A model generated the notes under the pieces. The model saw nothing but the letters and a program-made list of their open reading frames with translations. It was not told where the DNA came from and made no database searches. This document shows, piece after piece, positions 9,025-9,933 of a DNA stretch of 64,000 nucleotides; the stretch's first letter is position 1, and each line of letters starts with the position of its first letter. The translations under genes were made by a program, and so were the position numbers. Source of the stretch: a virus; the IMG/VR virus record IMGVR_UViG_3300021492_000027; one strand, 5' to 3'.

Positions 9025-9933
9025 ATGAAACAAAAAGCGAGGCGACATAGTAGAGCATTTTTTGAGAAGTTAGTGCGTAACGAGTTGCACGATCTACCGG
9101 AATCGGTACAGCAAGAGACAATAGACAAACTCGTGCAGTACGATTGTCCTGTACTAACCGCACAAAAAACCCGGGATGTGCTCAATAAGATAAAATCACA
9201 ATTCAATGAAGCGAATATCACCCCAAGCGAAAGCATCGGTATCGTAGCAGCGCAATCACTTGGCGAGAGCAGTACCCAGCTCGTTTTGAGAACATTCCAT
9301 TACGCGGGTGTGGCATCTGAGTATATGCGTGGCGGGCTCGCGCGTGTGCAGGAGATAATAAACGCAGTAAGGCATATCAAAAACCCGTCAATGCGTATAG
9401 TGATAAAACATAAGCGTGCAGAAAAAAGAATAATCGAGCAAATAAAGAGTTTGAGGGGTGTTTCGTCACTAACAATAACACAAGAAGATGGTAAGACTGT
9501 CATATACACACGCGGTAGTAATTTGAGAGATGCGATGGAGATAGAAGGTATAAGTGTAATAACAAACAACATAAGAGAAATAGAGGATGTGTTGGGTATA
9601 GAGGCGGCACGTGCGGCGATAATAAACGAGCTCTATGGCGTTTATAACTCATCAGGGTTGGATGTTGATATTAGGCATATTATCTTGATAGCGGATATGA
9701 TGACCGTGAACGGCTATGTGGAGCCTCTGAATCGTGTGGGTGCGATGCGTCATAAGAAGTCAATCATAGCGAAGATGGCGTTTGAAGCGCCCATATCTAA
9801 TCTATATACTGCGGCGGCGACTGGTGCTATTGACAGTTTGGAAGGCATAACCGAAAATATCATTGTCGGTAAACCCATTAATCGCGGTACTGGCAGTTCC
9901 TTGATAGTTTTAGAGTACAAAGACAATAAATAA
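9025..9933 (+). CDS. rpo1C: Archaeal RNA polymerase subunit Rpo1C (A'') homologue with jaw domain deleted
   Basis: VAAQSLGESSTQLVLRTFHYAGVA (trigger loop), TNNIREIEDVLGIEAAR, DVDIRHIILIADMMT, MAFEA, ENIIVGKPINRGTG. Confidence 0.9.
   Translation: MKQKARRHSRAFFEKLVRNELHDLPESVQQETIDKLVQYDCPVLTAQKTRDVLNKIKSQFNEANITPSESIGIVAAQSLGESSTQLVLRTFHYAGVASEYMRGGLARVQEIINAVRHIKNPSMRIVIKHKRAEKRIIEQIKSLRGVSSLTITQEDGKTVIYTRGSNLRDAMEIEGISVITNNIREIEDVLGIEAARAAIINELYGVYNSSGLDVDIRHIILIADMMTVNGYVEPLNRVGAMRHKKSIIAKMAFEAPISNLYTAAATGAIDSLEGITENIIVGKPINRGTGSSLIVLEYKDNK

Follow-up and report, generated by a model that had tools for sequence, protein, structure and literature searches.

A jawless Rpo1C homologue encoded by a large virus-like genome from hydrothermal sediment and its possible role as a replacement subunit of archaeal RNA polymerase

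The 64,000-nucleotide stretch analyzed here (the window; IMG/VR record IMGVR_UViG_3300021492_000027) belongs to a circular virus-like genome whose source is hydrothermal sediment. At positions 9025 to 9933 it encodes a homologue of Rpo1C, subunit A'' of archaeal RNA polymerase (RNAP), in which the jaw is replaced by a short linker. The gene and the features within and just before it are as follows.

8988 to 9012, plus strand: TATA-like A/T-rich stretch, 13 to 37 nucleotides upstream of the ATG (a pattern picked out by eye, with no statistics)
9025 to 9933, plus strand: jawless Rpo1C (RNAP subunit A'') homologue, 302 amino acids (aa), identified with Pfam, PDB chains, Foldseek, and VIA
9247 to 9366, plus strand: trigger loop and its two base helices, aa 75 to 114; Q85, R89, H92, and E110 kept, GGLAR hinge, and Q109 at the position of I98 in Methanocaldococcus jannaschii A'' (mjA'')
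9400 to 9441, plus strand: 14-residue linker (aa 126 to 139) in place of a jaw insert of ∼85 residues, from alignments and a survey of insert lengths
9730 to 9762, plus strand: remodelled GRHG..GEK block, aa 236 to 246, with His changed to V and Gly to R/K, from residue counts

The A/T-rich stretch is a possible promoter of the gene's own, in which case the leader would be short or absent.

The open reading frame (ORF) at 9025 to 9933 encodes an Rpo1C/A'' homologue. Residues 47 to 247 match PF04998 (RNA_pol_Rpb1_5) at 6e-41 and 141.1 bits (gathering cut-off, 28.5), and the best NCBIfam model is TIGR02389 (rpoA2), matched in two stretches with 260.6 bits, under its equivalog cut-off of 420.65. 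The top matches among solved structures are archaeal Rpo1C chains, from Pyrococcus (3e-61), Thermococcus, Sulfolobus, and Saccharolobus. Identity to cellular Rpo1C is 45 to 48% across the conserved parts, and the N terminus of the viral protein coincides with the archaeal A'/A'' split point. An AlphaFold2 model, usable for fold assignment and for region 120 to 200 (predicted local distance difference test [pLDDT] score of ∼80) only, ranked archaeal Rpo1C first with Foldseek and VIA-align (E value, 3e-16; Z score, 13.4). The model core (residues 64 to 274) superposes on residues 100 to 368 of 4ayb_C at 3.3 Å (166 residues) and on residues 1092 to 1385 of yeast Rpb1 at 2.4 Å (136 residues), the latter implying that the viral core skips the Rpb1 jaw. 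Fold, motif order, N terminus, and catalytic trigger-loop residues are those of cellular Rpo1C (Pyrococcus furiosus [Pfu] 8cro_C, Thermococcus kodakarensis 4qiw_C, and mjA''). The viral gene differs in lying outside the rpoH-B-A'-A'' operon, on a mobile element, and in scoring below the TIGR02389 cut-off, and the viral protein has 14 residues where the cellular one has ∼85 of jaw, with family-wide changes of the hinge proline, L92, I98, and the GRHG His.

The jaw deletion is precise. NPSMRI occupies aa 120 to 125 and IKSLRGV aa 140 to 146, leaving a spacing of 14 residues. An earlier note on this stretch, made from the sequence, had put the gap at about 15 residues with the Rpo1C blocks in order, and had expected a cellular jaw of roughly 80 to 100 aa at that site; both observations hold. 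The alignment to PDB chains consists of two collinear blocks (query 14 to 139 with Pfu 8 to 135, and query 129 to 294 with Pfu 214 to 382). Relative to archaeal Rpo1C chains ∼80 residues are absent, chain residues of about 136 to 213 being skipped, and residues of about 119 to 216 in an M. jannaschii-type A'' correspond to ∼14 residues in the viral protein. A hidden Markov model of the short family matched 39 proteins in one stretch, none of them with extra residues at the jaw site, whereas 244 other homologues (cellular or eukaryotic) carry an insertion there, with a median of 88 residues and a length of at least 65 in all except one odd sequence. In the alignment the first jaw helix is apparently kept, and the chain rejoins at an LKG-type motif. 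In the model (pLDDT, ∼80), a helix at 130 to 141 packs against a strand at 122 to 127 and against both strands (148 to 154 and 157 to 163) of a hairpin at 148 to 163. The 320-aa cellular-type Rpo1C P0223 was considered as an intermediate with a small jaw and rejected: its internal deletion is a different, odd one, and the GSN motif is also gone. Fragmentation, decay to a pseudogene, or misassembly may account for it.

Residues were compared between 39 viral and 81 cellular Rpo1C proteins (M. jannaschii numbering), with the following outcome.

Q74, R78, H81, and E99 (trigger loop): conserved in cellular proteins; kept in 39/39 viral proteins
P71 (GEP): P in 81/81 cellular proteins; S in only 5/39 viral proteins, including the GES of the window protein
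L92: L in 73/81 cellular proteins; G in 38/39 viral proteins
P95 (G-x-P hinge proline): P in 80/81 cellular proteins; in 0/39 viral proteins
I98: I in 77 and M in 4 of 81 cellular proteins; Q in 29, E in 4, R in 1, V in 3, and K in 2 of 39 viral proteins
GRHG His: H in 81/81 cellular proteins; in 0/39 viral proteins, 33 of which have I, V, or L
Gly four residues after the GRHG His: G in 81/81 cellular proteins; K or R in 36/39 viral proteins

In the 302-aa protein, GESSTQLVL-RTFH lies at positions 80 to 92 and GGLAR at 103 to 107. These motifs, with Q and RTFH kept, read as the earlier note had given them, but its statement that both prolines are lost needs division: both are missing from the window protein and the second from all 39 members, while the change of GEP to GES is a lineage trait rather than a family trait, since only five members have it. 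The GRHG..GEK block may be the equivalent of Rpb1 switch 1. Of the 114 positions with at least 90% conservation in cells, the viral family retains 67 and has lost 4 by deletion.

The residue at the position of I98 affects catalysis. Tan et al. (2008) tried all substitutions at two trigger-loop-region positions of M. jannaschii RNAP (PMC2776397). In this recombinant enzyme, I, V, L, M, and K at A'' position 98 behaved as wild type and most other residues were superactive; I98 contacts the bridge helix and adjoins the conserved G-x-P hinge, and its neighbor corresponds to the residue changed in the fast yeast Rpb1 mutant E1103G (PMC2776397). As Q, E, or R stands here in 34 of the 39 viral proteins, the family bears residues of the activating class at a rate-setting position. 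It resembles the laboratory variants mjA'' I98X, mjA'' G72X, and yeast Rpb1 E1103G in that it naturally carries superactive-class residues at I98 and has lost the G-x-P proline. Laboratory trigger-loop and jaw mutants, however, are engineered single changes in cellular enzymes, whereas the viral changes are combined, natural, and virus borne.

The jawless proteins form a family of ∼39 metagenomic protein clusters, and the short linker is common to all members. In a large protein collection clustered at 90%, 37 clusters of 292 to 327 aa, all metagenomic, covered the whole query at 41 to 97% identity, and cellular Rpo1C proteins (376 to 465 aa) ranked below them; among 1.84 billion representatives at 50% identity, only two clusters gave a one-stretch match. 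A maximum-likelihood tree (posterior mean site frequency [PMSF] model) with 67 cellular sequences placed the jawless proteins in one clade (Shimodaira-Hasegawa-like approximate likelihood ratio test [SH-aLRT], 99) on a stem of 0.64 substitutions per site, which is the virus-only long branch that had been named beforehand as the expected support. The sister group consists of long-branch, partly Diapherotrites/DPANN sequences (SH-aLRT, 86 to 87). Given its weak support and probable long-branch attraction, we name no donor or host lineage from it. The reading frame is intact in all family members, pairwise ratios of nonsynonymous to synonymous substitution rates (dN/dS) among three relatives are 0.12 to 0.19, and the family is under purifying selection.

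The gene does not nest in cellular synteny, an outcome that would have spoken for contamination: jawless genes sit on virus-like contigs away from rpoA'/rpoB. These contigs (57 to 165 kb) are one stranded and dense in ORFans, and on them the Rpo1C genes are never in an rpo operon but are flanked by nuclease, recombinase, and winged helix-turn-helix (wHTH) genes and by small ORFans. The cellular comparison locus from Methanocaldococcus (L004), by contrast, has the rpoH-rpoB-rpoA'-rpoA'' operon. Four NCBI copies in the cluster of P0012 (OQX50623.1, RLJ06189.1, RLJ05893.1, and RLB90102.1) are annotated as "hypothetical protein" in metagenome-assembled genomes (MAGs) from hydrothermal sediment. 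The bins are mutually inconsistent (Cloacimonas 4484_209, Aenigmatarchaeota twice, and Deltaproteobacteria), and the contigs are probably those of viruses that were assigned to the wrong bins. In GTDB (185,579 species genomes), the 80 best matches were full-length cellular genes only, with no jawless member. IMG/VR gave no match to the single protein and, with the family profile, only giant-virus Rpb1 (27 to 40% identity) and no family member. INPHARED, a collection that does not include the anaerobic methanotrophic archaeon (ANME-1) spindle virus PBV082, gave only weak Rpb1 or beta' matches to Rpo1C by tblastn and no megablast match to 25 kb of the window.

The genome was closed to an 85,040-bp circle via independent assemblies, with three overlaps that are all 100% identical.

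Overlap 1: L178 1 to 1490 = window 62511 to 64000
Overlap 2: L178 11950 to 20369 = L168 1 to 8420
Overlap 3: L168 10582 to 14736 = window 1 to 4155

The circle is composed of window positions 1 to 64000, L178 positions 1491 to 11949, and L168 positions 1 to 10581, and an ENA k141 contig of 85,181 bp is consistent with it if a 141-bp end overlap is allowed. Partner subunits were sought throughout. Methanocaldococcus RpoH, B2, B1, A1, and NusA (from L004) found only the Rpo1C gene by tblastn, both in the whole 85,040 bp and in the window plus three relatives. Pfam scans of 136 window ORFs and 20 ORFs of the other arm returned no other RNAP, TBP, TFB, TFE, or TFS family. The claim that the window holds no other RNAP subunit is confirmed, and the rest of the genome, now closed and scanned, likewise yielded no partner subunit and no full RNAP. 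A complete viral RNAP would include homologues of both large subunits, namely the N-terminal part of Rpb1/beta' with NADFDGD and Rpb2/beta, and neither was found in the closed genome. Stretches of 17.6 to 21 kb around the gene in six relatives (contigs of 57 to 165 kb) share the genome style of the window and carry no other rpo gene. One DUF3987 protein (D5-type primase-helicase; window 31022 to 32275) has a C-terminal winged helix weakly resembling RNA_pol_Rpc34 (E value, 2.4e-4, below cut-off), but it is probably a plain wHTH rather than an RNAP component.

The catalytic Mg site of RNAP is located in Rpo1N/Rpo2. As the element lacks both, any polymerase function of the viral protein must use host subunits. 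By a narrow margin, we favor the view that the viral protein takes the place of host Rpo1C in a hybrid polymerase, in which trigger-loop kinetics would be altered and the upper-jaw docking site for TFS-type factors would be missing. During infection, viral Rpo1C would compete with host Rpo1C for host Rpo1N, Rpo2, and the small subunits, and the hybrid polymerase would be the product of this competition. Loss of the upper jaw would remove the docking surface for factors of the TFS family, both TFS itself, which acts in cleavage, and its inhibitory paralogues (e.g., TFS4), and would loosen the grip on downstream DNA. The changes in the C-terminal base helix of the trigger loop (loss of the hinge proline, L92G, and I98 to Q/E/R) could make catalysis faster and less regulated for viral transcription. 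TFS4, which displaces the trigger loop, has its docking site on the upper jaw and lobe; through its linker it contributes strands to two jaw beta-sheets, and inhibition is driven by jaw displacement (PMC8448823). Both family-wide alterations, the excised jaw and the remodelled base helix, would make mechanistic sense for a virus, but assembly with host subunits, loss of factor docking, and faster catalysis are all inferred. A broader proposal, that a group of large archaeal viruses reprograms host RNAP by swapping a core subunit and that the hybrid is faster, does not bind factors of the TFS/TFS4 type, and escapes a host shutdown defense, is plausible but falls slightly short of being favored.

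Several points weigh against the hybrid enzyme. At 43 of the 114 positions conserved in cells, one of them the GRHG His, the residue is changed or its conservation is relaxed in the viral family, and this could equally mean that normal function has been lost. Superactivity was measured in a single archaeal enzyme and varies with the partner bridge helix. The AlphaFold2 model of the isolated subunit has low confidence (mean pLDDT, 60.8) with the trigger loop unmodelled, and, according to the model, part of the jaw sheet may persist.

Alternatively, the jawless subunit could be a dominant-negative decoy that ties up host Rpo1N/Rpo2 in crippled polymerases and so turns host transcription off. In favor of such a role are the alteration of many positions that are invariant in cells (the GRHG His and the hinge proline among them) and the loss of a jaw that helps to hold downstream DNA, and shutdown of RNAP by RIP and TFS4 is known for archaeal viruses and hosts (PMC8448823, PMC9501531). 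We nevertheless consider a decoy unlikely. Having no polymerase of its own, the element would lose viral transcription as well if the host enzyme were poisoned; invariance of Q, R, H, and E across about 40 to 97% identity would serve no purpose in a decoy; and in vitro the substitutions at the I98 position belong to the activating class and not to the inactivating one. The invariant catalytic residues across the family, together with dN/dS of 0.12 to 0.19, favor a working subunit over a pure dominant negative, and the reading as a working hybrid is strengthened by the virus itself needing the host polymerase.

A role outside general transcription, for example a structural one or one in which the protein assembles with or regulates host Rpo1N for a special task (such as replication priming or R-loop formation), is suggested by the location of the gene among replication and recombination genes, with integrase-like, HNH, and PD-(D/E)XK genes upstream and helicase, PCNA, RFC, PrimPol, and PolB genes downstream. 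We give such reuse little credence, however, as most core motifs and the trigger-loop residues used in catalysis are retained, which points to ordinary nucleotide-addition chemistry, and nothing specific favors another role.

It is more doubtful still that the protein is part of a complete virus-encoded RNAP with other subunits that are too divergent to recognize or lie elsewhere in larger relatives. Jumbo phages and giant viruses do encode full and sometimes very divergent multisubunit RNAPs, the matches of the family profile in IMG/VR are all giant-virus Rpb1, most ORFs of the element have no recognizable family, and the relatives reach 165 kb, of which 17.6 to 21 kb each was covered. The Rpo1C copy, however, remains 45 to 48% identical to its cellular counterparts across the conserved parts, and partners captured with it should be equally visible, yet neither Pfam nor tblastn found one in the 85,040-bp genome. 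Moreover, once annotated enzymes and the surface-type proteins of 1612, 1235, and 908 aa are set aside, few ORFs are long enough for double-psi beta-barrel subunits. Cellular contamination, chimeric assembly, or a decaying pseudogene is scarcely credible: some members are binned in NCBI cellular MAGs (Cloacimonas, Aenigmatarchaeota, and Deltaproteobacteria), but the bins contradict one another, as is typical of viral contigs, the genome was recovered from independent assemblies with 100%-identical overlaps and closes to a circle, local synteny is conserved among relatives, no member has a broken frame and dN/dS is 0.12 to 0.19, the gene is never beside rpoA'/rpoB as it is in cells, and the jawless form does not occur among the 80 best matches from 185,579 species genomes.

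The hybrid polymerase that we favor would be new among viral strategies. Archaeal viruses have been stated to encode no RNAP and to be fully host dependent (PMC5569661; bioRxiv 10.1101/2021.07.29.453957). The earlier note knew of no characterized example, and our literature search for viral Rpo1C or rpoA2 found no precedent either; the paper on the ANME-1 virome does not mention RNA polymerase. The Rpb1/Rpb2 sets of Nucleocytoviricota and the split beta/beta' sets of jumbo phages likewise include a virus-borne homologue of the largest subunit. These viruses, however, encode both double-psi beta-barrel subunits and are self-sufficient, whereas here a complete genome has only the C-terminal third of the largest subunit. 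Phage sigma factors and the TFB homologues of rudiviruses, JinchiV1, and PBV300 follow the same logic, in that a viral copy of a part of the transcription machinery redirects the host polymerase, and a viral TFB has been described (PMC13700489). Sigma factors and TFB are reversibly binding initiation factors, whereas Rpo1C is a stably assembled subunit of the catalytic core. RIP (ORF145) of Acidianus two-tailed virus (ATV) and host TFS4 act on the same enzyme during infection, but they are small accessory proteins and not subunit homologues, and a jawless subunit may have the opposite effect of making the polymerase deaf to them. In Escherichia coli, enzymes with a deleted beta' jaw are viable, differ in the stability of their open complexes, and resist phage T7 Gp2.

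The known viral tools acting on archaeal RNAP are inhibitors (RIP) and copies of TFB, and a viral Rpo1C points to a third strategy, that of rebuilding the enzyme from within. If shown to occur, subunit swapping would add a new kind of interaction between virus and host, would be the first strategy known from any virus in which a core subunit is replaced, and would overturn the view that archaeal viruses have no RNAP components. The family also constitutes a natural experiment on the jaw, which holds downstream DNA and docks TFS/TFIIS, and on the trigger-loop base helix, which governs catalytic rate and fidelity. The idea is open to direct testing, since recombinantly expressed subunits can be assembled into archaeal RNAPs.

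Downstream of the Rpo1C gene are three genes that recur in relatives.

9973 to 10257, plus strand: winged-helix protein, 94 aa (Pfam HTH_11, HTH_27, and TrmB)
11911 to 12794, plus strand: two more genes (products of 198 and 96 aa) that keep synteny with the Rpo1C module in relatives

In relatives L001 and L002, too, the Rpo1C gene has an orthologue of the winged-helix protein (34 to 49% identical) downstream of it, and this protein could be a dedicated transcription factor of the Rpo1C module. The 198-aa and 96-aa proteins have no Pfam match, and their genes have tblastn matches of 39 to 46%, in the same order, in L001, L002, and L003. Directly upstream of Rpo1C (window 7492 to 8971) are an integrase-like gene, an HNH endonuclease gene, and a PD-(D/E)XK nuclease gene. 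Relatives have a resolvase, a phage integrase, or a NUMOD3-type endonuclease at this site, and L003 has an inserted IS605 OrfB/TnpB.

The element is best read, tentatively, as a large spindle-type archaeal virus (Fuselloviridae/Itzamnaviridae-like). The term "virus" here is based on genomic context and on a candidate two-helix capsid protein. Almost all genes are on one strand (in the window, ∼129 ORFs on the plus and 7 on the minus strand, with a coding density of 94%), and the genome is divided into two arms, one surface/structural (21 kb) and one enzymatic (64 kb), a layout that has been described for ANME-1 spindle viruses (PMC9894754). The window encodes PolB, PCNA, two RFC-like clamp-loader ATPases, PrimPol, and helicases for replication; XPF-type, Cas4-like, and PD-(D/E)XK nucleases; NrdD and dUTPase/dCTP deaminase for nucleotide metabolism; and DNA methyltransferases, a glycosylation cluster, and tRNA-Lys. 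The other arm (21,040 bp) encodes several proteins with signal peptides or PKD, FN3-like, or BNR domains. A DnaA-like ATPase together with a circular double-stranded DNA genome with structural and enzymatic arms, the combination expected of spindle viruses, is present: one of 20 structural-arm ORFs matched phrog_5484 (DnaA-like) at 9.8e-7, likeliest the 310-aa Walker-A protein at L178 10976 to 11908.

Further features of the element are as follows.

L178 1668 to 2033: 121-aa protein with two hydrophobic segments/helices, first gene of the structural arm
L168 1533 to 10112 (upstream of the window start) and L178 4223 to 6949: three very large secreted-type proteins
Window 47294 to 49084: NrdD, without an ATP cone

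The 121-aa protein is a candidate major capsid protein of the spindle-virus type. It has no Pfam or PHROG match, and a homology search gave 15 metagenomic relatives, none of them named. Its nearest Atlas clusters are viral hypothetical proteins (scores of 0.90 to 0.91), and the nearest named clusters, His1_capsid and VP1_VP3 (His1/fusellovirus capsid), score 0.82, which serves as a lead only. One relative is on a 70,163-bp contig, the same length to the base pair as the contig of the close Rpo1C relative P0290, and the two are probably one contig. Comparison of the structural-arm proteins with PHROGs and Pfam gave no capsid, portal, or terminase family at convincing E values; a match to a PHROG "terminase small subunit" (0.0035) is not credible. 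The secreted-type proteins, of 1612 aa (K/E/P rich), 1235 aa (DUF2341), and 908 aa (DUF2341 and BNR_4), have no PHROG match and may be adhesins or fibers.

NrdD shares 55% identity with its counterpart in Pletoitzamnavirus PBV082, a spindle-shaped virus of ANME-1. A relative on a 73-kb contig matching the contig of a family member has an intein-bearing version of 942 aa, and an RFC-like clamp loader of a 110-kb relative (L174 15818 to 17179) also has an intein (weak Intein_splicing match) and is followed by a NUMOD3-type gene.

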